From Candidatus Diapherotrites archaeon CG08_land_8_20_14_0_20_30_16 (GTDB lineage Archaea; Iainarchaeota; Iainarchaeia; Iainarchaeales; 0-14-0-20-30-16), in contig PEXK01000052.1 in the NCBI GenBank assembly GCA_002779075.1, positions 1 to 19,212 of the forward strand: 19,212 bases of DNA, written 5' to 3'. Numbering within the stretch: the first letter of the stretch is position 1; each line of letters opens with the position of its first letter. The notes beneath the pieces are model-generated. The model had not been told where the DNA came from and did not search any database. It saw only the letters and a list, made by a program, of their open reading frames with translations. This document shows positions 1 through 18,157 of the stretch, piece by piece. A program made the translations under genes and the position numbers.

Positions 1-3000
1 GTTGCAAACTGTGGATCTTTACTTGCCAGCCATTTAAAGAATTTTCCATAATCTCCTTTTGCTTTTGGAAGATTTGCTTGCAATTCTGCATGGCTTGATA
101 TTTCGAATCTCTGCATTGCTGATGCCATTTCTTCCTGCATACCAGTTATTGTATTTAATCTTGATGTATTAAATAAGCTCAAAATAAAAGCATCTTCAAC
201 TTCTTGTCTTACATCCCTTCCTGTTAATGCTCCTTTGTTTTCAAATAATTCTTTTGCTTTTTGCTCATCAGTTACCCCTGGCTGACTCTCTTTGTCATAA
301 TCATTAAATAAAGCACCAACAACAGGTATTTTTGCAAACCAATTATGCACGCCATCATACCAATGATCTCCAGAATCAATACCCAAAGCAACATTATTTC
401 TATGGTTTGCATACCAGCTTGTTAAACCTAAATCTACAGTTATAATACTACACTGTAAAGCAGCACCAGCCCATGCAAAGGGTCCCAAAAACTTTGCTTT
501 GCCAACAACCATTTCTGTTGCCATACATGCACCAAATCCTGCTACACTGGCTGCACCTATAGCAAGAGGCAGACCACTAGTAATATCACTTGCAAATGGT
601 TTCACATTATTTGAACTGCAAGTTGTATTTGGTGTTTTTCCAGAAATATAAATATTTTTGTTTTTCTCCTGTACCTCTTTCAATACTTCACAGCCATCTT
701 TTTGTATTTCTCCGCCTTCCCAATATACTTGTGCAAAGTATTGATTGTTTTTTAAACCAGAACCCAAAACACCAAAAATAAAATCTGCTGGTGGAACACC
801 ACAGGGTCTAAAGGATATTGATTCAACAAGGTCGTCACCAACAACAGGTCTGAAAACTAATTTCAGAGGATCTGCTTTATTGAAATTCTGTGCAACGCTG
901 GGATCACTAAAATCTATTTCTAAAATATATTCTTGTGGTCCACCCTTAAAAATACTGATATCTGAAACTTCATTATTCTGTTGATTAATAATTCTTGTTG
1001 TATATCCTTGTGGATTATCTGGTAATACAAATAGTTTTCCGCCACCGCCTACTGGTCCAATCAAACTAAACTTCACTGATTGCTTTCCAGATCCTGCAAG
1101 CACATCTTTTTTGCTTATTGATAATTTGTATGCTCCTTTCAAATCACTTGTTGATGAAACAAAATGTAATTTATCTTCTTCTTTTGTAATACAACCAATA
1201 AACCCTCCTTTAAGGGCTGCTTCAACAGAATTCAAAACATCTTGTCTTTTATCTGGTTTTGACACATCAATCTCTTTATTTACAGTGACAACAACCTGTG
1301 GATTTTCTTCTGCTTTCAATGAAATATCTAAAACCCTGTTTTCCAAACTTGCTCTTGTAAAAAATAATGTGTTTGATTTTCCTTGTGCTAATCTTTCTTG
1401 TGCAAAAAACTTTTTGCTGGCTTCTTTTGCTAATAAATCATAACCTACACCTACAAGACTTTTATCATAATCTGCATAACCTAGCAAAAATCCTGCAGTA
1501 TTATCAATTCCTGATTTACTATCTTTTGGCAAAAACAAAATTGCATTCTGAATTTCTGGTTTGCATTCAGGTGTATTTTCATAACCAGCTCTTGCAAGCA
1601 GACTAAATGAATCTTTTTGCATTGAACCATCACGTATCGCAAATGCGCCTTCCAATGTTATTGTGTACTTTCCGCATTTTGCAATAGACATATCAACAAA
1701 CAATTTATTGAACTGATATTCTGATTGTTCAACTAAATTAAAGCCCTGCAAAGGCAAAAGATTTACACTTTTTATTTGCGGAATACTTGCATTCAATACT
1801 TTTTCTAAATATTCTTCGCTTATTCTATCATGCATCAAATATAAAGTAAAGGGTGTGTATTCAATTCCTAATTTTTCAAAAGAACAGGATTTTGCTTCTG
1901 GTTTACAGCCTGTAGACTTTAAATCTTTTGTATATTTTGCACCTGCATTATTATACAATTCCAAATAACCCTTAATCTTTCCATGCAGATAATCTGATGC
2001 TGTCTGGCCATCACAATAAGCTGCCCCGCAATCAACAGAACTTGCAACTTTAGGAAATTTCACAGAAACTTTTGTATCGCTATCACAAACAGACATTTCT
2101 TTATCTAACGTTGGAAGGATATCTTTTCCTTTAGCAGTTCTTCCAAACTCAAATCTATAATTTACTGCTAATTCATAAATCTTATTTGTTTGAAGGCCTA
2201 TTGCTTTAAAAATAATTGGTTGTGTCCAACTCAATTCACTGCCTGCAAAAACAACTGATTTCAAAGTTAATGCTTGTTTAGGAAGGATTTGTTGGTTTCC
2301 TGCATTTTCTGCATTTTCTGCAGTTACTTCCAAACTGACTTTGTCCTTTATATTTTGCGATATGGGCAGATCCAATTTAATAGGTTCTGCACAATCATTC
2401 TGGATTGTCAGATTATCATTAGGTGGTAAGTAAACCTCTAACTTGCCAGAAATAAAAGATAATTCGCTTCCTGGAATAACTGCTTTAACACATTTGGGTG
2501 ATGAGATACTTAAAAATAATGGTATGCTTGCTTCTACAGGCTGGCTGTCAACAGAACTTACTCCTCTTACTAATATAGTATATGCAGTAATCACATTTGC
2601 TTTTTGTGTGTAAGGTGGTTGAATATATAACTGCGATAACCCTGTTTGATTTGGCATAATATATGGCAAAACTCTTGGATTTGGGCTGATGTTTACACGA
2701 ACATTTGTTTGGCTAGCCTGTGCAACACCTTGAGGCGTCCAATTATTGTATGGTGATAAACTGCTTTTATAATTTCCCCAAGGATCGTAAAGTGATTGTG
2801 TTTGCGGGCCATTCAAAAGAGGATTATAATACTCAGATGCAGGCACATCACTATAAGGGACGCCTGTTGTGAAAGGACTTGCATTATATGGCAAAAGCAT
2901 TACAGTTACATTTCTTAATGGTACACTTCCCAAATTGTTGATGAAAAGAGGCATAGTAACAATCTGATCTGCTGACAAAAATAATTGTGGATTTGGCACA

Positions 3001-6000
3001 GAAATATAAAGTTGCCCAAAGCTATGGATCAAATTTAAATGTAGGGGTAATTGTTTTATAAAATATCCTGTGTCTAAGTTCAGGAATAATTCTGCTTTGA
3101 TACTTTGTCCTTGTACAACCCCTCTTGATGTTAATGAAAATCTTAATGGTTTCTGTTCTCCTCTTTTCAAACTAATTGCACTTGCACTAAAATCAACACT
3201 TTGCGCAATTTCATTGAAGTCTCTAAAAACCAAAAATGGCGATAATTGCACAAAATCAAATTCACATTCATTTCTCAAATTCAATATGCCCTCAAATCTT
3301 TTGGCCTGCGTATCGTAAAGTGTTGCATTCAGTTCTGTAGGATCTGCAACCAAACAAGAGCTGTCTAATTCTGAATTTGCAATAAAAGATAAATGAATAA
3401 CCTGTCTTACAATTTCATTTCCATTTATTGTTCCACTTATTACTAAATCTTGATCGCCATATATTATTTGGTCGGTTTCAGTACTGACTGTTACTATTAA
3501 TTTAGTATCTGATTGTGGCAAAAGATTTGATTTCACAAATCTATAACTCACAACAAATGCTTTTGCATCGTCTCTTAAAACATCGCTACTTAATTTCAAA
3601 ACAGGATACTGCGAAATATTGCTTACAACAATTTCATAATCTCTTTGCTTTTTTCCTGGCGGAATCTTTATTTCATGTTCTGATTTTATACTCAAAACAC
3701 CAAATCTTGTAACAATAAAATTGCCTCTGACTGTGACATGTTGCTGTGCTCTAACTTCATAATTATAAACACCAGATGGCAATTCACTTATAACATATGT
3801 TCCATCCTTCCCTTTCTGTTGTGTATTATCTCCTTTCACTAAAACAGTTGCCAAACCTTTATCTTCTGTTACTGTGATAATAGCATTTGATATTTTTCCT
3901 TGCGTATCAGAAACATTGAATATTATTGGTTTCCCAAATTCAATATACCCATTACCATTCAAATTTACATTCAATGTTCTTTGGCCATCAATTCTAAAAT
4001 CAAAATTCTTTTGCAATCCAATAATTGGTGCAGTCATAGAAATTGTTGCAGTTCCTTGCTGCTTTGCATTAAAATACAACCTGAATTTTTTGTGTTCCCC
4101 TTTTTTCAAAACTAGACTGTAACTTAGAGATTCTAACTCTGTTTCTTTGGGATTGAAATTCATTAAATCCTCATCTAACCCATTAAGCACAATTGTTTTT
4201 AATAAATTATTTGCATTGAAATCAAGTCTTGTTGAAGCATCGCTAGGGCTGTAAAAATCAAAATCTATTGCATAAAATTCGTCAACAACTGCTGAAAATT
4301 CACTATATTTAGTAAAGCCATCAGTAAAAGAATAAGAATAACAAACGCTGGATACTGAAGAGCATTCAAACAAACTAGAAAATACTTCTATTTCTTCAGA
4401 ATATGTATTAGAATGCAACTTTTTTAATTTAGAATTCTGGACAGAAACATCTGATTTTGGATCTGTATGATAAGAATTTCCATCAAAAGAATCTGCCCTG
4501 TAATAAACATATAATTTGTTTAAATCCAAAGCATTAGAAACATTTACTTTCACTTTAAATTCTGTAAAGCCTTTAGGATTTTCATAAATAATGTTTGCCC
4601 ATTTATTTCTTATTCCAGATCTTCCAAACACCTGTAAATCTTTTACAAAACTCTCATCAGTATTTTCAGTATAATATAAACCATATTCTTTCTTTGTTCC
4701 TATTGAGTCTACTCCTAAAATTGCATACTGCATGGACTTTACTGGTTCATTTTCTTTGCCCAATCTAACATGTGCTTCACCTTTTGTTTGTCCTTTAGGC
4801 CAGATTAATGAAAACTTCAAATAATATGTGCCCCCTATTTTTACTCCATTTACTTTATTTGCGTAGGCATCATATATTCCTACAAAAGATATTTTAGGAT
4901 CTTTTGTAATATCTAATTCTGTTAAGAGGATTTCCATCTTTTCTGATACGTCCACTAATTTGGTGTATATGTTTCCTTTGCCATCAACAACAGTTACTTC
5001 AACTTCTTTTGCCCCATTAGACAAAAACTCTACTTTGCCTAATCCTGTATTTCCATCGAACAAAACAGAGGTTTCTGTTTTTATAGTCAACCCACCATTT
5101 TTCAGTGGCTGACCATTTGGTCCATAAATATATAATTTACTTGTTTTCTGTTTTGTTGTTAATGTTATTTCTATTTTATTATCTCCGCTCACTAAAAGTG
5201 CATCTTGTGTACCTTCTAAATCTTCTGTACTTATTGTCACCTGAATATTGTTGTTCGGTTCTAAAATAGTTGTAAATAATCCTGTAATTGCTGTTCTATT
5301 ATCAGGCAAATAAACAGGAAGATTCTTTTCTCCAATTATAGAAATATCCACGCTTGCATTTGCAATTGGCTTGTTATCTACATTGGCTGCAAAAATATTT
5401 ATTTTAGCCGCAGTTGAAAAATTTATCTTTTTAAGTATCAATATTATTGGAGGCAGGGTTTCAGAATCAACATACTGGGTAACAGGATAAAAATTTCCCA
5501 AAGCATAAGCAGATACATATGCTCCACGTTTTACATCAATGCCAGAAAACTCTACAACACCTAAAAAATCTGTTGTTTTCGTATCAATAATTAATCCATT
5601 TTCTGAATACAATGCTACTGTTGCTCCTGGAACATTCTGTTTTGTTTCGTCTCTCACAATAACACTAATTTTTGTTCCGCCTAAATCCAGATAAACATTA
5701 ATTCCCAAAGAATTTTGTCTGAGAGTTATATTTTTGTTTTTATCCTGCGAATCAAAAGTAATAAAATCTTCTTTTGAAACAACATATCTCAGTTCGATTC
5801 CTTTTTGAATGTTTATAGGCAATTTTCCTTGAGCATCAGTATAATCTTCAGCAATTAATTTTTTGTCACTAGAGTATAATTGCACTTTTACTTTTTCTAA
5901 AGGCAATCCATTAGCAGAAGTTACAGTGAAAGTTATTGTCCCTTTTTCTCCTGTTGCTATACTCTTAGGTTCTAAAATTAAATCAGTTATTTTTCCATTT

Positions 6001-6689
6001 GCAGGCACTTCAATAGTTTGAAAATCCAAATAGCCATCTTTATTAATTTTTATTGTTAATGGCCCCTGCAAAGAAATTCCTGACAATAAAACAATTCCTG
6101 AATCATCAGATTTTGTTGAAAATAAAAGCTCGCCATCAGAATAAACATTTACATCAGCACCAGGGATTATTGTTTGAAATTCTTTATCAACTAAACGCAG
6201 TTGCATACTTCCTATTTTTTCTTCTTTGGTAAAAGTAATTATTTTATACATTTTTTTACCAGAAACAATAATTTCCAGTGGCCCGACAAAAGTATAGCCT
6301 TCTAATTGTCCAATTACTTTCAAACTGTCTCCGTCTGAAACACCATTTAAAGTAATACTTTGCCCATCTGTAGTCAATTCATTATACAATTGGTCTTCGC
6401 CAAAACCAATTGTTAGAAGAACGTTATCTAATTTATTTTTTCCCATGTCTTCAAAATTTACCTGTAAAACAATACTTGATTTGAAAATCAAAAGTGAAAT
6501 CAGCACTATAACTATAATAATCAGAAGAATCAAAAATATAGAAAACCACATTGCAGGAATGCCGTGTCCTTCCAAAAAATTATTATATCTTTGAAGAGGT
6601 ATACCCTTTTCTGTTAAGAAATCGCTAAGGCCTTGGTATTTTTCCTGCAGTTTTGCATTTATTTTTGAAAAAAAGTTCCCTAAACCCAT
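1..6689 (-). CDS. Giant membrane-anchored surface protein, partial (>2,229 aa; the C-terminus lies beyond the left window edge), with tandem carboxypeptidase-regulatory/PEGA-like beta-sandwich repeats
   Basis: This ORF is absent from the ORF track because it has no stop inside the window. Manual reverse-complement translation starts at the ATG at 6689-6687, the first start after the in-frame TGA at 6725-6723. The frame stays open down to position 3; I spot-checked codon by codon at 1-60, 421-600, 1021-1080, 2401-2460, 3661-3720, 5401-5460 and 6121-6689. The track lists no complete minus-strand ORF in 1-7000, which agrees. The N-terminus is MGLGNFFSKINAKLQEKYQGLSDFLTEKGIPLQRYNNFLEGHGIPA, followed by the hydrophobic span MWFSIFLILLIIIVIVLISLLIF (a signal anchor). 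Repeated modules follow, such as MQLRLVDKEFQTIIPGADVNVYSDGELLFSTKSDDSGIVLL, ITFTVTSANGLPLEKVKVQLYSSDKKLIAEDYTDAQGKLPI and ISVIVRDETKQNVPGATVALYSENGLIIDTKTTDFLGVVEF. A Gly/Ala-rich hydrophobic stretch (GLPLAIGAASVAGFGACMATEMVVGKAKFLGPFAWAGAALQCSIITV) lies at about 430-600. Confidence 0.85.
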   Translation of the reverse strand, partial: MGLGNFFSKINAKLQEKYQGLSDFLTEKGIPLQRYNNFLEGHGIPAMWFSIFLILLIIIVIVLISLLIFKSSIVLQVNFEDMGKNKLDNVLLTIGFGEDQLYNELTTDGQSITLNGVSDGDSLKVIGQLEGYTFVGPLEIIVSGKKMYKIITFTKEEKIGSMQLRLVDKEFQTIIPGADVNVYSDGELLFSTKSDDSGIVLLSGISLQGPLTIKINKDGYLDFQTIEVPANGKITDLILEPKSIATGEKGTITFTVTSANGLPLEKVKVQLYSSDKKLIAEDYTDAQGKLPINIQKGIELRYVVSKEDFITFDSQDKNKNITLRQNSLGINVYLDLGGTKISVIVRDETKQNVPGATVALYSENGLIIDTKTTDFLGVVEFSGIDVKRGAYVSAYALGNFYPVTQYVDSETLPPIILILKKINFSTAAKINIFAANVDNKPIANASVDISIIGEKNLPVYLPDNRTAITGLFTTILEPNNNIQVTISTEDLEGTQDALLVSGDNKIEITLTTKQKTSKLYIYGPNGQPLKNGGLTIKTETSVLFDGNTGLGKVEFLSNGAKEVEVTVVDGKGNIYTKLVDVSEKMEILLTELDITKDPKISFVGIYDAYANKVNGVKIGGTYYLKFSLIWPKGQTKGEAHVRLGKENEPVKSMQYAILGVDSIGTKKEYGLYYTENTDESFVKDLQVFGRSGIRNKWANIIYENPKGFTEFKVKVNVSNALDLNKLYVYYRADSFDGNSYHTDPKSDVSVQNSKLKKLHSNTYSEEIEVFSSLFECSSVSSVCYSYSFTDGFTKYSEFSAVVDEFYAIDFDFYSPSDASTRLDFNANNLLKTIVLNGLDEDLMNFNPKETELESLSYSLVLKKGEHKKFRLYFNAKQQGTATISMTAPIIGLQKNFDFRIDGQRTLNVNLNGNGYIEFGKPIIFNVSDTQGKISNAIITVTEDKGLATVLVKGDNTQQKGKDGTYVISELPSGVYNYEVRAQQHVTVRGNFIVTRFGVLSIKSEHEIKIPPGKKQRDYEIVVSNISQYPVLKLSSDVLRDDAKAFVVSYRFVKSNLLPQSDTKLIVTVSTETDQIIYGDQDLVISGTINGNEIVRQVIHLSFIANSELDSSCLVADPTELNATLYDTQAKRFEGILNLRNECEFDFVQLSPFLVFRDFNEIAQSVDFSASAISLKRGEQKPLRFSLTSRGVVQGQSIKAELFLNLDTGYFIKQLPLHLNLIHSFGQLYISVPNPQLFLSADQIVTMPLFINNLGSVPLRNVTVMLLPYNASPFTTGVPYSDVPASEYYNPLLNGPQTQSLYDPWGNYKSSLSPYNNWTPQGVAQASQTNVRVNISPNPRVLPYIMPNQTGLSQLYIQPPYTQKANVITAYTILVRGVSSVDSQPVEASIPLFLSISSPKCVKAVIPGSELSFISGKLEVYLPPNDNLTIQNDCAEPIKLDLPISQNIKDKVSLEVTAENAENAGNQQILPKQALTLKSVVFAGSELSWTQPIIFKAIGLQTNKIYELAVNYRFEFGRTAKGKDILPTLDKEMSVCDSDTKVSVKFPKVASSVDCGAAYCDGQTASDYLHGKIKGYLELYNNAGAKYTKDLKSTGCKPEAKSCSFEKLGIEYTPFTLYLMHDRISEEYLEKVLNASIPQIKSVNLLPLQGFNLVEQSEYQFNKLFVDMSIAKCGKYTITLEGAFAIRDGSMQKDSFSLLARAGYENTPECKPEIQNAILFLPKDSKSGIDNTAGFLLGYADYDKSLVGVGYDLLAKEASKKFFAQERLAQGKSNTLFFTRASLENRVLDISLKAEENPQVVVTVNKEIDVSKPDKRQDVLNSVEAALKGGFIGCITKEEDKLHFVSSTSDLKGAYKLSISKKDVLAGSGKQSVKFSLIGPVGGGGKLFVLPDNPQGYTTRIINQQNNEVSDISIFKGGPQEYILEIDFSDPSVAQNFNKADPLKLVFRPVVGDDLVESISFRPCGVPPADFIFGVLGSGLKNNQYFAQVYWEGGEIQKDGCEVLKEVQEKNKNIYISGKTPNTTCSSNNVKPFASDITSGLPLAIGAASVAGFGACMATEMVVGKAKFLGPFAWAGAALQCSIITVDLGLTSWYANHRNNVALGIDSGDHWYDGVHNWFAKIPVVGALFNDYDKESQPGVTDEQKAKELFENKGALTGRDVRQEVEDAFILSLFNTSRLNTITGMQEEMASAMQRFEISSHAELQANLPKAKGDYGKFFKWLASKDPQFA

Positions 6690-6793
6690 AAAAATACCTT
6701 TTTGTGGGAATCTGTCATAATTTCAGAATTTAATGAAGAAATTAGGACTGTCCCATTCCAATCCCATCTATATTATAATATTACTTATTAGTA

Positions 6794-7071: not shown

Positions 7072-8061
7072 TTATGGTTTGGTTGTCAGATTTATTGTAT
7101 TTAATTGCTTTTCTGGATTATAAACTCTCCAAAATATTGGACATCCACCAAAACAAAAATTAATTCTAGAACAAAGAGTGCATTCTTTTATTGGCCTGTG
7201 AGATATCTTTGCTCTAACCGAATTAAGTTCAGACCACATTTTTTCAAAATTGTTGTAGGAAATATTACTATTAATTTTTGCAATTGGAAAATCGACCCAA
7301 TGAGTGCAAGGCAAAATATTATTATTACTATCTATAACCAAACCACTTCCTGAAAAAATATGACAATTAAAATTATAGTGTTTTTTTAGATCATTTGGAA
7401 CTAAACAAGATGGAACAGGTGTAACAACCGAAAATGTCGCACCACTGTATTTTTTTATTAACCGTCTTAATAGGGGATTAAATTTCTTTGTGAATTCATC
7501 TGGCGAAAAAGTAATATTATTTTTTCTAAAGTTCGTAACTATATTATATCCAAAACGTTTAATTCCGAGATTGTATAGTTCATCTATTAATTTAGATAAA
7601 CTTGAAAAATTTGATTTGCTAATTGCTGTATTTGTGGATAATATCTTTATATTATAATTAAATACATTTTTTATTGCTTTTCTAATAAAATTATATGCTT
7701 GTTGGTTATCTACAATTATATTGTGTAAATCTTTTGGACCTTCAATCGAAATGGTTATGCCCTTTAATTTGGGCAGTATTGTTTTACACAAAGACTTTCT
7801 TGAAAAACCAAGACCATTTGTTACTACAAAAACATTGAAACCCCCATTATACAACATATTTACAATCTCTTCAAAATTAGGGTGTAATGTGGGCTCGCCG
7901 CCAATTAATATTATCTTTTTTGGTTTTATTTTATTAAATAAGTGAATAAAATTTCTTATGGTATCTAAGGTCATAATTCCTCCTCTTTTTTTATAATAAC
8001 AAAATTCACAATTATTATTGCATTGAGAAATTATTGTTAGCCACACAGTAGATATTGTCAT
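7072..8061 (-). CDS. Radical SAM enzyme with a C-terminal SPASM-type auxiliary Fe-S domain (putative peptide maturase)
   Basis: The CxxxCxxC motif is CNNNCEFC; its codons were verified at 8022-7999. A GGEP SAM-binding motif is present (ILIGGEPTLHP). The C-terminal region reads CHIFSGSGLVIDSNNNILPC ... ECTLCSRINFCFGGCP, which gives an exact Cx2Cx5Cx3C SPASM signature at about 7141-7365. The start is most likely the ATG at 8061, forming a TAATG overlap with the upstream stop. The track's TTG at 8067 is the alternative. Confidence 0.9.
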   Translation of the reverse strand: MTISTVWLTIISQCNNNCEFCYYKKRGGIMTLDTIRNFIHLFNKIKPKKIILIGGEPTLHPNFEEIVNMLYNGGFNVFVVTNGLGFSRKSLCKTILPKLKGITISIEGPKDLHNIIVDNQQAYNFIRKAIKNVFNYNIKILSTNTAISKSNFSSLSKLIDELYNLGIKRFGYNIVTNFRKNNITFSPDEFTKKFNPLLRRLIKKYSGATFSVVTPVPSCLVPNDLKKHYNFNCHIFSGSGLVIDSNNNILPCTHWVDFPIAKINSNISYNNFEKMWSELNSVRAKISHRPIKECTLCSRINFCFGGCPIFWRVYNPEKQLNTINLTTKP

Positions 8062-8750
8062 TAGCAATCCTCTTCAAAAAAATAAGTCCCATATATTCCC
8101 ATAATAAGAAAATCTTCTTCTTCAGACAATATCATTATTTTACTATAAAATTCGTTCTCGTGTTTTATGGGCGCTTTAAAAAGTGGCTTTGTTTTCAAAT
8201 AGAATTCTTTTATTTTATCAGAATAACATTTCTGCTTTGGCAAATACCCATATTTAATTTTAATAAGCATTTGCCTAAATTTAAAATCCACAAAAAAATA
8301 ATTGTATGGAATTAATGAGTAATCTATTGATTTTAATAAAACAAAATATTCCTGAGATCTACATTCACTAATATATGTTTCAAAAATATATTTATATGCA
8401 AGATAATCTGCCAAACAGGTCTTTAGATCTTTTGGGTATTTATTTTTATCAAAAAAGGCATCATAGATTTTTTCGCGTAACGAAAATATTGTTTTGTCTG
8501 CTTGTTTCATATACCTCAAATCTATTGCTTTTATTTTGTTTTTTAGTTGTGTATTATATTTGGCATTAACTTTTAATTTGTACTTTTTTCCTGATTCTTT
8601 TTCAATCTCAATTACTTCATGCAAAAGTATTTCTTTTCCTAAAAAAGATTCAAACATTTTTAAATAAGCCATTTTATTGATTTCATAAAAAAATTGTGAA
8701 AATGGCTTCCAATCAAATACCATAAAACTATTTATTTGAATTTCTCGCAT
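8061..8750 (-). CDS. Hypothetical protein (229 aa ORFan) in the rSAM operon
   Basis: This is a complete ORF. Its ATG (8750-8748) directly abuts the TAA of the upstream gene (TAAATG), and its own TAA overlaps the ATG of the rSAM gene by 1 nt. The protein is rich in Tyr, Phe and Lys and looks largely helical. I recognise no P-loop, ATP-grasp, HD or other catalytic motif. Confidence 0.7.
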   Translation of the reverse strand: MREIQINSFMVFDWKPFSQFFYEINKMAYLKMFESFLGKEILLHEVIEIEKESGKKYKLKVNAKYNTQLKNKIKAIDLRYMKQADKTIFSLREKIYDAFFDKNKYPKDLKTCLADYLAYKYIFETYISECRSQEYFVLLKSIDYSLIPYNYFFVDFKFRQMLIKIKYGYLPKQKCYSDKIKEFYLKTKPLFKAPIKHENEFYSKIMILSEEEDFLIMGIYGTYFFEEDC

Positions 8751-9086
8751 TTAAGAATCCTCTTTAACAACAAAATGTTTTTCATTTAAATCTATTGATA
8801 TGCTTGTGTTGGGTTTTAACATATCAAAAGAGTTAGTTCCTAAAATAACAGGTATTTTAAGTTCTCTGCTTATAATTAATGCATGACTCAAAATACTCCC
8901 ATTTTTAATAATTAGTAATTTATAATCCGAAACAAAAGGAATTCTATTCATTTGTAAAGTGGATAAAAACAATATTTTATTTTGTTTATTATCTTCAGTA
9001 TAATCTGGCTTTTCAAATTTTATAACTTGTCCAGAAATGTTGTTGTTTCCGTAAGACATGATATATTTAGCATTAAATTTAACCAA
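8751..9086 (-). CDS. Stand-alone PEP-utilising-enzyme mobile (swivelling phosphohistidine) domain protein, 111 aa
   Basis: The sequence ISGQVIKF...KILFLSTLQMNRIPFVSDYKLLIIKNGSILSHALIISRELKIPVILGTNSFDMLKPNTSISIDLNEKHFVV follows the PF00391-type pattern: G.xSHaaIvaRElgIPav.G, then ...v.vDg..g.v. The putative phospho-acceptor His is residue 68; its CAT codon was verified at 8885-8883. The TTG start at 9086 is preceded by GGTGAT (9096-9091) with a 4-nt spacer. The ATG at 9059 is an alternative start. Confidence 0.8.
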   Translation of the reverse strand: MVKFNAKYIMSYGNNNISGQVIKFEKPDYTEDNKQNKILFLSTLQMNRIPFVSDYKLLIIKNGSILSHALIISRELKIPVILGTNSFDMLKPNTSISIDLNEKHFVVKEDS

Positions 9087-9137
9087 TTAGATCACCAGTT
9101 TAATATTTTTAATTAAAAATATAAATTTAAATTACAA

Positions 9138-9362
9138 TTATTTATCACCAATACAATCACTACTACAATCAGGATTGTCACCACAATCACAAACACAATC
9201 ACAATCTCCTGGCGATCCATCTCCTTCGTAACAATCTGCAGCCATAAAAACATCCGATTGCCCCTTTTTGGACTTTATTATTATTAAATCACCAGTCACA
9301 TTAGAATTTCCAAATTGGGTATTATATAAAAGATATTCTTCTCTTACAGTACAATCTAACAT
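9138..9362 (-). CDS. Small Cys/Asp-rich peptide (74 aa; 89 aa if started at 9407), candidate RiPP precursor
   Basis: The sequence is MLDCTVREEYLLYNTQFGNSNVTGDLIIIKSKKGQSDVFMAADCYEGDGSPGDCDCVCDCGDNPDCSSDCIGDK. The ATG at 9362 is preceded by GGAGGG (9373-9368) with a 5-nt spacer, the same style of SD-like motif seen before purA and proS. It is the first gene of a same-strand, tightly packed cluster ending in an rSAM/SPASM enzyme. The last 34 residues contain 7 Cys and 9 Asp; codons were checked one by one across 9141-9245. Confidence 0.7.
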   Translation of the reverse strand: MLDCTVREEYLLYNTQFGNSNVTGDLIIIKSKKGQSDVFMAADCYEGDGSPGDCDCVCDCGDNPDCSSDCIGDK

Positions 9363-9511
9363 ATTATCCCTCCAAAAATATAAAAACACTAGTCTTTGGC
9401 CAAACATTAAAACAAGATACTAAAGATTTACAAAAGAAATAATTCAAAATTAGCTTGGTCGTTTTCCTTCTAAGTAAGGTTAAAACCATATAAATATATT
9501 ACCTAGAAGAA

Positions 9512-11511: not shown

Positions 11512-13224
11512 ATGTTAGAGCAAATAAAGAAAGATTTAGAGAAACTAGACCCAAGCCTCATTATAACAAGTCTTGAAATATACGAAAGGAATATAAGACT
11601 GGGTTTTCCTGAGGAATTATCTTTGTTGGGCCTCTTTTTGCCATACCTTTCAGAAGAAAGAAAAGCTAAATTGGAAGATATTGCAAAAAAGTACATCCCT
11701 TCGGGGGAAGAAAAAATAGAAAATCTTATTTGCATAAAAGATATTGAATCATTAAATGATCCTATTTTAAAAGAAAATTACAAAAAAATGCCTAAAAAGA
11801 TATATGAAGTAGCATTTACAAAAATAACACATTTGGATTTAGCTTTAGCACTTTTGTCTGAAAAGGCAACAGAAATAAACAATAAAACATATTTTCCAAA
11901 CCAAAATACCTTTGTTGAGTTTTTAGAAAATGTTTATTGTCAATTGTGCCAGATTTTTGATATTTCCTATTATACTAATTTTTTGGATAATTTTGTTATA
12001 ATTAATAAATATCATGAAGAATACAAAAAAGTTCTAGAAATAACAAAACAAAATCTGACTAGAAGCAAAGATGAAATTTATTATATAATATCAGAATTAA
12101 AAAAGTTTCAAAAATATCCTAATGAAATTTTCAAAGGCAGATTAAAAACACCTGCAAGCGTTTTTAAGAAAGTTTATGTTAGAAAAGAACCTGTAGAAAA
12201 CATTGTTGATTTTGTAGCAATAAGAATTGTTACCAATACAATAAGCGATTGTTACTCTTGGTTAGGATACATTTATTCTCTGTGGCCTCCAAGGCTTTCA
12301 AAATTTATGGATTATATTGAACATCCAAAACCCACTGGTTACAAATCTTTACATATTGTTGTAGACACAAAATTTGGGCCTGTTGAATTTCAAATACGAA
12401 CTCATAATATGCATAGATTTGCAGAATTTGGTTTAGCAGCACATTGGAAATACAAAATAAAAAACGAAAATAAAATGTTAGAAAAAATAAAATCTAGACT
12501 CGCTACACAAAACCCCTATTTTGATCAGGGCCACATTTTTGTATACACCCCAAAAAAGGACATAATAATATTAGATAAGGGTTCTTGTATTGTTGATTTT
12601 GCGTATGCAATTCACACAGATCTTGGCGACCATTTATTTTCTGCAGAAGTCAACAATAAAATTGCACCTTTGAACTATAAGTTAAAAGATAAAGACATAA
12701 TAATGGTTCATGCAGATTCAAAAAAGAAACCAAATAAAAATTGGCTTGAGTTTGTTGTCTCAAATAAAACAAAGGAAAAAATATCTCAAAGTTTAAAAAT
12801 TATAAAAATTAATAAAAAAATAAAATTGCTAAATCCAACTCTTTTTTTTAAAGAGAAGGTGCAAGTTGCACAATGTTGCAATCCTTTTTGTGATGATGAT
12901 GTAGGAATATACAAAAGCACAAAAAGAAAATTAATCCTGCATAAAGCGTCTTGTCTAGAAAAAAACCATTTGAAATATTCTTATGCTTCGGATGCTTTAA
13001 AAACCCTTTTTTTAATAAATAAAAGAATTAAAATACAACTATCTTCAGATTCCAATCTGCTTATTGAACAATTAAAAACAAAATTTGTAATGGAAGATCC
13101 AGAAATAAACAAAAAGAGGAATACAATAACATTCAACACAAAACTAGCACACAAAGAGGATTTTACAAAATTCAAAGAAGAATTATTAGAAGAAGAGTTT
13201 GTTGAAAGCGTTGAATTGGTTTGA
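11512..13224 (+). CDS. Long RelA/SpoT homologue (RSH), putative (p)ppGpp synthetase: divergent N-terminus, then SYNTH, TGS, Cys zinc-finger (ZFD) and ACT-like domains
   Basis: The synthetase motifs are GRLKTPASVFKK, DFVAIRIV, DYIEHPKPTGYKSLH, EFQIRT and HRFAEFGLAAHWKYK (about 12133-12456). The TGS domain is IFVYTPKKDIIILDKGSCIVDFAYAIHTDLGDHLFSAEVNNKIAPLNYKLKDKDIIMV (about 12532-12711). The post-TGS segment is PNKNWLEFVVSNKTKEKISQSL. The ZFD is VAQCCNPFCDDDVGIYKSTKRKLILHKASC. I could not find an HD hydrolase His-Asp motif in residues 1-200. GGGTG lies 9 nt upstream of the ATG. Confidence 0.85.
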   Translation: MLEQIKKDLEKLDPSLIITSLEIYERNIRLGFPEELSLLGLFLPYLSEERKAKLEDIAKKYIPSGEEKIENLICIKDIESLNDPILKENYKKMPKKIYEVAFTKITHLDLALALLSEKATEINNKTYFPNQNTFVEFLENVYCQLCQIFDISYYTNFLDNFVIINKYHEEYKKVLEITKQNLTRSKDEIYYIISELKKFQKYPNEIFKGRLKTPASVFKKVYVRKEPVENIVDFVAIRIVTNTISDCYSWLGYIYSLWPPRLSKFMDYIEHPKPTGYKSLHIVVDTKFGPVEFQIRTHNMHRFAEFGLAAHWKYKIKNENKMLEKIKSRLATQNPYFDQGHIFVYTPKKDIIILDKGSCIVDFAYAIHTDLGDHLFSAEVNNKIAPLNYKLKDKDIIMVHADSKKKPNKNWLEFVVSNKTKEKISQSLKIIKINKKIKLLNPTLFFKEKVQVAQCCNPFCDDDVGIYKSTKRKLILHKASCLEKNHLKYSYASDALKTLFLINKRIKIQLSSDSNLLIEQLKTKFVMEDPEINKKRNTITFNTKLAHKEDFTKFKEELLEEEFVESVELV

Positions 13225-13230
13225 TCCATG

Positions 13231-14121
13231 CTATGGGTTGACATAAACAATATCTGTACTAACCTTTGAATATATTAATAAACCCGTTTTTACCAATAAT
13301 TCTATTGCTGAATGAAAATCTGACCAGCTTATTGCCATATTTCTCCAACTCTTTGTTAAAGAATTATATATTGCTCGTTTAGATATTCCTTTTTTATTTA
13401 ACTTTAAAGATTTTTCTTCAAAATGCCCACTAATAAGTGTAAACATTCGTACAACTATCATAGAACATAACGAATTTTTCAAATCATTAACTCTTTTTTG
13501 GTATTCTAAATTATCTTGAATAACATATTCAGACCAAAAACCTTCTTCTTTCAAATATTTAATCGCTTTCATATAATATCTCAAATTAGAATCTGACACA
13601 AGCCCTGCTTTTCTTTTAACTTCAATTTTTAGTTTGCCAAAAGGCAGGTCAGTGTTTTGTCTAATACAGTCTAGCAAGTCATAATTTACTGGTAATGTTA
13701 AATAGGGTGGTGGTTCCTCTGGTATTGACAGTTTGGGTGTCTGCGATTTAACTTCTTGTGGTTTGGCTTTTTGTATGGTGGCATTTTCAGGGTATTCTTT
13801 TAGTGTTCGGGATATTTCTTGTAGAGAGAATCCTTTTGACAACAGAAATTCTACTAATTTTCTTCTTTCTAAATGTGAATTTGCACTTATTACTCGCAGT
13901 AAAATATCTTTTCTCTTTTGTTGTCTATTTTGTTCTAACAAAACAGCCCGGTCTATTTTTATTCTCAAAATTATTGTGTCTGCTTCAAAAACAGTATATC
14001 CAGTTTTTAATAATACAGATTTTAGGCGTCTTAAATTTAGATTTGGGTTTTCCCGCAATATTGCTTTTGCAGATTCTACTTTCCTAACAAATATATTTAC
14101 CCCTTTTGATCTTCTAGCCAT
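13231..14121 (-). CDS. Hypothetical protein with tandem helical modules resembling RecX or HTH repeats (tentative)
   Basis: This is a complete ORF. The ATG at 14121 (MARRSKG...) is preferred over the track's GTG at 14142. Internal repeats include NPNLNLRRLKSVLLKTGYTVFEADTIILRI and NSHLERRKLVEFLLSKGFSLQEISRTLKEY. The function is not supported beyond this. The gene is convergent with the RSH gene, with only 6 nt between the two stop codons. Confidence 0.55.
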   Translation of the reverse strand: MARRSKGVNIFVRKVESAKAILRENPNLNLRRLKSVLLKTGYTVFEADTIILRIKIDRAVLLEQNRQQKRKDILLRVISANSHLERRKLVEFLLSKGFSLQEISRTLKEYPENATIQKAKPQEVKSQTPKLSIPEEPPPYLTLPVNYDLLDCIRQNTDLPFGKLKIEVKRKAGLVSDSNLRYYMKAIKYLKEEGFWSEYVIQDNLEYQKRVNDLKNSLCSMIVVRMFTLISGHFEEKSLKLNKKGISKRAIYNSLTKSWRNMAISWSDFHSAIELLVKTGLLIYSKVSTDIVYVNP

Positions 14122-14210
14122 ATCATCACAAAAAATTAACACATAAAATTAACAAATCACATCCTGCACTACACGCTTTTGCAGCATATAAAAAGGATAT
14201 GTCTAAAGGT

Positions 14211-17143: not shown

Positions 17144-17265
17144 ATCTATCCTCTAAACCTACCTTATAGACAGTATAATTTTATGTGTTGGTTGAAAACT
17201 GCAATATAATATAGAATATATACAATATAAACAATTAACTTTAAAAATAAGAAAAAGATAAAAAG

Positions 17266-17339
17266 TGGGCGAGGCCGGATTCGGACCGGCGACATACTGC
17301 GTATAAGACAGTTGCTCTACCAGGCTGAGCTACACACCC
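17266..17339 (-). tRNA. tRNA-Ile (anticodon UAU)
   Basis: The hand-folded minus-strand sequence is GGGTGTG-TA-GCTC-AGCCTGGTA-GAGC-A-ACTGT-CTTATAC-GCAGT-ATGTC-GCCGG-TCCGAAT-CCGGC-CTCGCCC-A. The anticodon loop CT-TAT-AC gives UAU. There are two departures from the canonical form: a U6/U67 mismatch in the acceptor stem, and C rather than U at T-loop position 55. No CCA is encoded. Confidence 0.75.
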
Positions 17340-17371: not shown

Positions 17372-17470
17372 AAACTGCTCTTTTCCAAGAAAAGATTGCT
17401 TCGTAAAAGGAATATAACTTGCATTAGAACAATTTCTAAAAGCAGCCTTAATTATGTATTGGCTTAAATG

Positions 17471-17478
17471 TTTATAAA
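17471..17478 (+). promoter_or_regulatory. TATA box (TTTATAAA) for a leaderless transcript starting at about 17501
   Basis: The octamer centre is 26-27 nt upstream of the ATG at 17501, the canonical archaeal TATA-to-TSS distance. The track's ATG at 17468 sits immediately 5' of the box and is therefore unlikely to be transcribed from it. Confidence 0.55.
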
Positions 17479-17500
17479 CATATCTAGGCTAGTTTATATT

Positions 17501-18157
17501 ATGAATAACTATTTACCCACTTTAAAGCAGATAGAACAGAAACTGGTGGCAGACACGAAGAAGATCAGGGAAATAAAGGAGCTAGTTGATTCCTTTCAAG
17601 AATATGAAAAAATACTCCAAATGCTCAAAGACGATATAAAAATAAAAAAGAGCAATGAAGATGTTTTAGAAGAAGCAACAGCTAAAACAAAGATCCTAGA
17701 GCCTCTAAACATTTTTTATAGAACTTATTTGGAAAGCTATAATGCTTTTATGCAATCACAAACTGCAAAAGAAACATATGATTTTTTTGAAAGGTATAGG
17801 ACTTACAGAACTTATCAATTAAACGAAAACATCCTTGAAAGATTTATTTCTGGATTCTTAAATAATTTCGCAGAAGACTTCACTTTTAAAACTGAATTTA
17901 TAGGGCAAATTAACACAGCAAACTTTGCACAAGCAGTTGGCGGGGTAAAGGATGGATCTTTGATTAAAATAAAATACAATCAAATACCAAAAACAATAAA
18001 AGAAGCATATAATTTAAGGTTAAAGAAATTCATAATCGAATCTCATAATTTAAAGCTTCTGTTTAGAGAAAATTATTTGGTTGAAATTTACGGATCAAGT
18101 GGTATGATCTATAAAACAGATAGATTAGCAAAAGAAAATAATATTTCTTGCTTATAA
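17501..18157 (+). CDS. Hypothetical protein (218 aa), with a predicted coiled-coil/helical N-terminal half
   Basis: This is a complete ORF. The start is moved to the in-frame ATG at 17501 (MNNYLPTLKQIEQKL...) because of the TATA spacing. I recognise no motif. Confidence 0.6.
   Translation: MNNYLPTLKQIEQKLVADTKKIREIKELVDSFQEYEKILQMLKDDIKIKKSNEDVLEEATAKTKILEPLNIFYRTYLESYNAFMQSQTAKETYDFFERYRTYRTYQLNENILERFISGFLNNFAEDFTFKTEFIGQINTANFAQAVGGVKDGSLIKIKYNQIPKTIKEAYNLRLKKFIIESHNLKLLFRENYLVEIYGSSGMIYKTDRLAKENNISCL

Follow-up and report, generated by a model that had tools for sequence, protein, structure and literature searches.

A conserved radical SAM/SPASM peptide cassette with a candidate phosphohistidine tailoring module in a Diapherotrites archaeon

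QhpD is a radical S-adenosylmethionine (SAM) enzyme of the SPASM type that makes Cys-to-Asp/Glu thioethers in a small Cys-rich polypeptide, the gamma subunit of quinohemoprotein amine dehydrogenase (QhpC). PapB, the SPASM maturase that acts on the Cys/Asp-rich core of PapA to give the ranthipeptide freyrasin in Paenibacillus polymyxa, links the sulfur of Cys to the β-carbon of Asp and accepts Cys-Xn-Asp motifs with n = 0-6, in nested as well as in-line arrangements (PMC9413430). The precursor recognition element (RRE) of PapB occupies residues 1-86, and some systems for peptides that are synthesised on ribosomes and modified after translation (RiPPs) have the RRE on a protein of its own (PMC12715619). 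For archaea, one RiPP survey does no more than list predicted clusters of the ranthipeptide and sactipeptide types, and it points out that hardly any products are known from there. Here we analysed a stretch of 19,212 nucleotides (the window) of contig PEXK01000052.1 from Candidatus Diapherotrites archaeon CG08_land_8_20_14_0_20_30_16, in which a radical SAM/SPASM enzyme and a Cys/Asp-rich peptide are encoded together with a stand-alone phosphohistidine swivel protein and a partner protein. On balance we lean towards a conserved RiPP-type cassette of DPANN-type archaea, in which a ranthipeptide-like pathway is extended by a clade-specific phosphohistidine tailoring module.

The first-pass annotation of this DNA, made from the sequence alone, had described four coupled minus-strand genes with TAAATG and TAATG junctions. 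The read-out of open reading frames (ORFs) confirmed this layout, with the genes following each other in the order peptide, swivel protein, 229-aa protein and radical SAM enzyme:

9138..9362, minus strand: precursor peptide gene, 74 aa plus stop (ORF and sequence)
9368..9373, minus strand: Shine-Dalgarno-like GGAGGG, 6 nt before the peptide ATG (read from the sequence)
8751..9086, minus strand: stand-alone phosphohistidine swivel protein, 'type a', 111 aa, TTG start (PF00391)
8061..8750, minus strand: family A partner protein, 229 aa, earlier called an ORFan
7072..8061, minus strand: radical SAM/SPASM enzyme, 329 aa (PF04055)

The TTG start of the swivel gene has GGTGAT ahead of it (9096-9091) and is supported by the homologues, in which conservation extends upstream beyond the later ATG picked by gene callers. 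The stop codon TAA of this gene stands immediately before the ATG of family A, with no gap, and the family A and radical SAM genes share one base in TAATG. In the NCBI deposits all four genes are labelled 'hypothetical protein' (PIU21936-38). The swivel and family A genes of the window also share a reading frame, separated by a single TAA (8748-8756), whereas at other loci the two genes overlap or differ in frame; the shared frame is probably a coincidence rather than a sign of programmed read-through.

The last gene encodes a radical SAM enzyme, which scored 64.3 bits to PF04055 (cut-off 29.5) in the scan with hidden Markov models (HMMs). Its CNNNCEFC motif covers residues 14-21 (7999-8022) when counted from the ATG, and the three cysteines of C14-x3-C18-x2-C21 are invariant in the subfamily. 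Because the motif begins at residue 14, the protein has no N-terminal RRE or other leader-binding domain. This had been proposed before with the motif at residue 16, a position that holds when counting from the TTG start (residues 16-23). The SPASM assignment was likewise borne out, although the Pfam model PF13186 gave no match at E <= 1. All members of the subfamily have seven Cys between residues 219 and 307 (7141-7407), namely C219, C233, C252, C294, C297, C303 and C307. This corresponds to the seven-Cys SPASM signature for two auxiliary [4Fe-4S] clusters, in which the last four form CX2CX5CX3C (C294-x2-C297-x5-C303-x3-C307). In sequence-profile comparisons the enzyme aligned over its full length, through the SPASM region, to anSME, CteB and SuiB. 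The same three proteins were the nearest structures in Foldseek (TM-score 0.67-0.73) to its AlphaFold2 model, which had a mean predicted local distance difference test (pLDDT) score of 86. The enzyme therefore belongs to the radical SAM superfamily and to its SPASM subfamily. It has the fold and the three-cluster architecture of CteB of the SCIFF system, SuiB and anSME, but is only 16-19% identical to them, their substrates are unrelated to the peptide of the window, and CteB and SuiB carry an N-terminal RRE.

Among the NCBIfam models the best match was PapB (NF047865), which covered the enzyme over its full length with 76.5 bits against a cut-off of 340; its relatives scored 60-108 bits to the same model, and the enzyme reached the cut-off of no curated family. 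It falls outside the PapB family itself, both by this score and by its lack of an RRE. In contrast to the PapB clusters, the window also has an archaeal host and a phosphohistidine module. QhpD (TIGR03906) matched over the full length as well, yet with 40.8 bits against a cut-off of 453. Moreover, QhpD has about 470 aa with an N-terminal extension, and the context of QhpC, with dehydrogenase subunits and a protease, is absent here. Three other assignments were tried and rejected. An enzyme of the anSME type (TIGR03942), which together with a lack of synteny would have refuted the earlier reading, is disfavoured by a score of 57.9 bits (cut-off 349) and by the peptide, which lacks a C/S-x-P/A-x-R motif. 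For a SCIFF/CteB system (TIGR03973/TIGR03974), the precursors had no NCBIfam match and TIGR03974 was outside the top matches of the enzyme. The viperin model (pVip, NF038283) gave 65 bits against 180 and covered residues 9-192 only, as the pVip model of PADLOC covered residues 6-191 only, and the C-terminal half of the protein, where viperins have an NTP-binding extension, is SPASM.

The peptide consists of a leader of residues 1-42 (9237-9362), with the motif Y-x-L-Y...N-S-N-V-T-G, and a core of residues 43-74 (9141-9236), DCYEGDGSPGDCDCVCDCGDNPDCSSDCIGDK, in which nearly all residues are Cys or Asp/Glu. The peptide had no family match in Pfam or NCBIfam. The 74-aa start is favoured because three single-nucleotide polymorphisms of contig L003 all fall within the 89-aa upstream extension of the ORF. 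A homologous leader with a Cys/Asp core was found at 8 other loci, and a small precursor-like ORF was present at every locus for which upstream sequence was available. The leaders share the block Y-x-[IL]-Y-x-V-x-L-x-N-x-N-[LVI]-[TSH]-G and are Lys-rich in their second half. The cores are 21-38 residues long, with 6-12 Cys and an equal range of Asp/Glu (6-12); they have one or two Tyr, basic residues are nearly absent, and the period-2 pattern C-D-C-x-C-D-C is frequent. The core of the window follows this pattern, whereas that of PapA has six CX3D motifs; still, every Cys/Asp spacing in these cores falls within the n = 0-6 range of PapB.

Conservation of the peptide and purifying selection on it had been named as a check on the earlier proposal, and both were found. 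The nonsynonymous rate (pN) was below the synonymous rate (pS) in 7/8 diverged peptide pairs, and peptide identity follows that of the cognate radical SAM enzyme (for example 0.69 vs 0.70), so that the peptide family is under constraint. We also considered that the repetitive core could be a translated microsatellite. Tandem Repeats Finder reported a single imperfect hexamer of 4 copies in the peptide gene, the Asp-Cys frame is the sole one without a stop at every locus, and the codons vary synonymously between TGT and TGC and between GAT and GAC. In addition, a filter for Cys/Asp tails was passed by only 9 of the 686 ORFs in 92 kb of these loci, all 9 being precursors next to a radical SAM gene. 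A microsatellite was ruled out on these grounds; together with the values of pN and pS, the lone open frame, the synonymous variation and the filter result indicate that the peptide gene is real.

The repetitive core can mislead gene calling, as the +1 frame of (GAT TGT)n reads IAIVIV. The database entry of one radical SAM homologue (P0003, L006:1-111) begins inside this false frame of the upstream precursor, so that its N-terminus is an artefact of gene calling by which the peptide is masked. At L015:3159-4631 a second, longer radical SAM gene follows the cassette; its 429-aa product has an N-terminal extension and scored 108 bits to PapB, and the gene is preceded by its own 47-aa acidic ORF, MRLCGDNFMNVSDHPNNGEWADEWIGNDGYVDTGDINPPGPSSDDED. 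The two may represent a second precursor-maturase pair.

About ten other metagenomic loci contain a related radical SAM gene (40-55% identity), and the genes around it are mostly archaeal; six of the homologues, at 43-55% identity, came from the homology search. The gene content next to them was as follows:

L009: peptide, swivel protein, 231-aa family A homologue, radical SAM enzyme (the order of the window)
L013 and L015: peptide, radical SAM enzyme, swivel protein, family A
L005 and L021: peptide, radical SAM enzyme, 267-274-aa family B protein (unrelated to family A), swivel protein
L010: peptide, radical SAM enzyme, third unrelated protein of 295 aa, swivel protein
L014: both modules around one intact radical SAM gene
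L006: peptide, radical SAM enzyme, 888-aa protein with PPDK_N ATP-grasp, duplicated middle region and swivel domain

A swivel domain is thus encoded within two genes of the radical SAM gene at every locus where the enzyme is at least 40% identical (the window, L005, L006, L009, L010, L013, L014, L015 and L021). Two further loci, L012 and L020, were found through family A and contain a swivel and a family A gene, with no radical SAM gene in the available sequence of either. Synteny elsewhere had been the second check on the earlier proposal, and the quartet does recur, in three gene orders plus a fused variant. Because the genes stay together through three orders and one fusion, we take their association as functional linkage rather than accidental adjacency.

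When 185,579 species genomes were scanned by profile, 80 loci were obtained, of which L021 was the one close relative; the other 79, with enzymes of at most 29% identity, had no swivel and no family A gene. Among these distant enzymes, RRE-less radical SAM/SPASM genes adjoin small Cys/Asp-rich ORFs in bacteria of the candidate phyla radiation (CPR), in Clostridia, in a Mollicute and on further contigs from metagenomes. There the two genes form a simple cassette of their own, and the neighbouring genes are unrelated. From these cassettes, which have no swivel, the pair of radical SAM enzyme and Cys/Asp peptide seems to be the older core, to which the swivel module was apparently added in one clade. 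They also bear on the earlier suggestion that the 229-aa protein recognises the leader: such a role is not needed, as RRE-less enzymes stand beside Cys/Asp peptides there in its absence. Two GNAT acetyltransferase genes and a NUDIX hydrolase gene are inserted between two family B copies at L012:2075-3601, and one GNAT acetyltransferase gene lies beside the cassette at L005:4525-4932; these recurrent acetyltransferases may be further tailoring enzymes.

The swivel protein scored 35.1 bits to PF00391 (cut-off 23.1, E = 1e-8), so that the PF00391-like domain of the first-pass annotation, like its radical SAM domain, lies above the cut-off. The catalytic His68, encoded at 8883-8885, stands in the motif S-I-L-S-H-A-L-I-I-S-R-E-L-K-I-P and is invariant in 11/11 swivel proteins of the system. 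The junctions between swivel and partner genes are all tightly coupled, ranging from 20-nt overlaps to 17-nt gaps, and the partner belongs to family A, to the unrelated family B, or is a singleton (L010). In the 888-aa protein of L006 a PPDK_N ATP-grasp domain, an internally duplicated middle domain and a C-terminal swivel domain are fused, which is the domain architecture of rifampin phosphotransferase and PigC. At L021 an ORF with ATP-grasp and swivel domains directly follows the cassette. One near-identical contig, L016 (L016:35-1337, equal to 8118-9420 of the window), carries two nonsense and three missense changes in family A and one missense change in the swivel gene, while its peptide gene is unchanged.

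The 229-aa protein is not an ORFan, as had been assumed. It belongs to a genuine but very scarce family, which we call family A; seven full-length members are known from an exhaustive scan and a profile search together, and in every case a type-a swivel gene lies immediately upstream. With HMMER, the exhaustive scan gave 4 matches in 1.84 billion representatives, the profile search found 5 proteins and the scan of the metagenome collection five loci, whereas a word-index homology search found nothing and the 185,579 species genomes contained none. The members do not vary at N25, R92, Y119-K120-Y121, D155 and, near the C-terminus, S209-E-E-E-D213. The AlphaFold2 model (pLDDT 80, predicted TM-score 0.81) has a small beta-alpha-beta-beta-alpha unit, after which comes a bundle of helices, and Foldseek found no match for this fold in the PDB and BFVD. 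Nor did any significant match emerge from Pfam, NCBIfam, PADLOC or the sequence profiles of the PDB.

Since PapB is the best match of the enzyme and the cores combine Cys and Asp/Glu at spacings that PapB tolerates, we propose that the radical SAM enzyme takes a hydrogen from the β-carbon of Asp (or the γ-carbon of Glu) and joins this carbon to the sulfur of a Cys bound at an auxiliary cluster. The (C-D)n core would thereby receive several thioether cross-links of the ranthionine type, like those made by PapB and QhpD. The conservation of the His, the close coupling of swivel and partner genes and the dikinase fusion of L006 suggest that swivel protein and family A together form a split enzyme of the phosphoenolpyruvate (PEP) synthase or rifampin phosphotransferase type. 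His68 would carry the phosphoryl group, and family A would replace the acceptor-binding middle domain and present the peptide, so that the phosphate could move to a peptide side chain. Candidate acceptors are the hydroxyl group of Tyr, which is found in every core, the Cys thiol, as in the His-to-Cys relay of the phosphotransferase system (PTS), and the Asp carboxylate. Because the window has no ATP-grasp domain, His68 would have to be charged in trans, for example by the PEP synthase or the pyruvate phosphate dikinase (PPDK) of the cell, or directly from PEP; the domain that would do so is fused to the swivel in L006 and encoded next door in L021.

Rifampin phosphotransferase, PigC/RedH and PEP synthase have the PF00391 swivel and the catalytic His in common with the protein of the window. 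On the other hand, the enzyme proposed here is split and reduced and has no ATP-grasp domain, family A shows no detectable similarity to any domain of rifampin phosphotransferase or PEP synthase, and the presumed acceptor, a ribosomal peptide, is unprecedented for the dikinase family. Split relays exist elsewhere: in the PTS (EI-HPr-EIIA-EIIB) a His-phosphorylated carrier passes its phosphate to a Cys thiol of EIIB, and in the phenylphosphate synthase of Thauera such a carrier passes it to phenol. Both acceptor types, thiol and phenol, occur in every core, and the proposed system would resemble these relays in its split design, with no sequence relation beyond the swivel domain.

Several observations weigh against this reading. 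The PapB match is weak and little better than that to anSME or TIGR04133. Since it stands at 76 bits against 340, epimerisation or another SPASM chemistry is possible, the chemistry of the product being proposed from sequence comparison. The earlier proposal of a coupling to phosphoryl transfer is backed by the fused PPDK_N and swivel enzyme of L006; it is weakened by the window itself, as no ATP-grasp or PEP-binding domain is present in its 19 kb or in the 9 kb beyond its end on the prolyl-tRNA synthetase (ProRS) side, some 17 kb from the cassette in that direction. Among the window, all split loci and the contig extension, ATP-grasp was found only in L006 and L021, and the cassette of the window thus lacks the PPDK_N ATP-grasp domain that charges the swivel His in a dikinase. 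Family A showed no relation to family B, to the partner in L010 or to the middle domain of L006 in hmmsearch and hhalign, with all probabilities below 1%, nor a likeness in fold, and the putative role of an acceptor-binding domain is given to it by its position and by analogy. The nonsense changes of L016 could mean that family A is dispensable or decaying in that strain, or that the contig is of poor quality. Finally, the cassette contains no protease or transporter gene, and the distant pairs of radical SAM enzyme and Cys/Asp peptide do without any swivel.

The scores of the enzyme to the PapB, TIGR04133, anSME and NirJ-type models were all low and similar, which leaves room for another SPASM or twitch-type reaction. 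Epimerisation as by EpeE/YydG, conversion of Cys to formylglycine as by anSME, or C-C cross-linking would then take the place of Cys-Asp thioethers, and the phosphohistidine module would still tailor the product. Foldseek ranked SuiB, a C-C cross-linker, close to CteB, anSME and EpeE, and both EpeE and anSME are likewise RRE-less and have about 320-370 aa. We regard such chemistry as unlikely, as the core consists of the very residue types that PapB and QhpD join, in a ratio of about 1:1 and at spacings accepted by PapB, and the sulfatase motif is missing. An intracellular metal-binding or redox peptide, or a cofactor, in place of a secreted natural product, is improbable to a similar degree. 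Here a metallothionein-like core would chelate a metal or an Fe-S cluster, the radical SAM enzyme would rigidify or mature it and the phosphohistidine module would regulate or load it. The Cys-x-Cys periodicity, the acidic core with its scarcity of basic residues and the fact that none of the loci has a transporter, protease or immunity gene would fit such a peptide, and pyrroloquinoline quinone (PQQ) and mycofactocin are examples of peptide-derived cofactors made by SPASM enzymes. Against it, the peptide matched no HMM of a metallothionein or cofactor family and its conserved leader is typical of a processed peptide; moreover, this role is compatible with thioether cross-linking and does not exclude it.

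It is also conceivable that the swivel protein and its partner serve as a leader-binding, chaperone or scaffold module that replaces the missing RRE, with no phosphate transferred to the peptide. PapB has its RRE in the same chain, separate RRE proteins are known from other RiPP systems, the modelled N-terminus of family A is a small three-stranded sheet with helices, and the leaders, being Lys-rich in their second half, could be bound there by the invariant acidic SEEED. We consider this quite improbable, because the catalytic His is never replaced, the swivel of L006 is fused to an ATP-grasp dikinase domain, the equally RRE-less enzymes of the distant cassettes manage without swivel and partner, and no PqqD/RRE match was found by HMM or fold. 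The weakest alternative is that the four genes do not form one system and that swivel and family A are an unrelated module, serving for example defence, regulation or the adjacent giant surface protein, beside the pair of radical SAM enzyme and peptide. Such pairs do occur without a swivel, and at five loci the cassette is followed by a gene for a large surface protein. Nevertheless, coincidental adjacency is very improbable given the three gene orders, the fusion and the complete co-occurrence within this radical SAM clade; the surface proteins encoded downstream share no homology among themselves, and PADLOC gave no match for the swivel protein, family A or family B.

The combination of a radical SAM/SPASM enzyme, a Cys/Asp-rich peptide and a swivel domain had been put forward as an undescribed pathway, and the syntenic quartet and the conserved peptide support this; a search of a full-text library found no paper that links a swivel or dikinase protein to radical SAM peptide pathways. 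The cassette represents a radical SAM/SPASM RiPP system with an unprecedented accessory module, with a substantial chance of defining a new class. More specifically, and only tentatively, it may stand for a new class of ribosomal peptide natural products or cofactors confined to DPANN-type archaea and possibly some CPR bacteria, in which a (Cys-Asp)n core is cross-linked by a SPASM enzyme without a leader domain and is then phosphorylated or activated through a phosphohistidine relay with interchangeable partners of novel fold (families A, B and others). To our knowledge, no radical SAM-dependent peptide natural product from archaea has been characterised. DPANN genomes are extremely reduced, and the conservation of a multi-gene peptide cassette in them suggests that it matters to the cell, perhaps for interaction with a host, for the handling of metals or as the source of a cofactor. 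If the proposal is correct, a swivel module on a radical SAM peptide pathway would be a new reaction type for RiPP enzymology, a new kind of substrate for the dikinase family (PEP synthase, rifampin phosphotransferase, PigC) and the first use of its His-phosphotransfer chemistry on a ribosomal peptide. The interchangeable partners, which have no detectable relatives, could define new scaffolds for peptide binding or phosphate transfer, and with four genes the system is small enough for direct heterologous testing.

The cassette is flanked by genes for a RelA/SpoT-TGS protein and a cardiolipin synthase, which raised the possibility that the window is of bacterial (CPR) origin. This was rejected, as it is outweighed by the Diapherotrites label at NCBI, where a protein of 'Candidatus Diapherotrites archaeon CG08' is 100% identical to the radical SAM enzyme, a thermosome gene on the same 63.5-kb contig and archaeal markers in the related loci, where genes for MCM, ribosomal protein S8e, CGI-121, PTH2 and Kae1 are found as neighbours. 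Because of the thermosome and of these archaeal genes, a DPANN archaeal setting of the cassette is supported, in line with the symbiont-type archaeal genome suggested by the first-pass annotation. A scan for bacterial promoters and terminators was uninformative (25 sites vs 23.4 expected). The RelA/SpoT-TGS protein (11512-13224, plus strand) would be a homologue of (p)ppGpp synthetase, and no HD hydrolase domain was detected in it; its gene is unusual on an archaeal-looking contig and may have been acquired horizontally.

A giant surface protein is encoded 382 nt downstream of the radical SAM gene (1-6690, minus strand); on the full contig it has 3180 aa. In four further loci, too, the cassette is followed by a large protein that is secreted or anchored, including L009:2406-3215, L010:2464-2952 and L014:7967-10924, and a comparison across loci showed no mutual homology. 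A functional link between the cassette and the giant surface protein was ruled out by this lack of homology, and any tie to surface proteins would therefore be thematic rather than evolutionary.

Further along the window, a tRNA-Ile gene with the anticodon TAT (UAU) is located at 17265-17339 on the minus strand. Reading of AUA by a tRNA-Ile with UAU is rare, and most archaea use a modified CAU tRNA. Two ORFs, at 17468-18157 (plus strand, 229 aa) and 13231-14142 (minus strand, 303 aa), had no significant family match; the former has the same size as family A but is unrelated to it. Past the end of the window, near the end of the 63.5-kb contig, two more radical SAM genes (263 and 495 aa) and a gene for an HD-domain protein were found at L103:718-3617.

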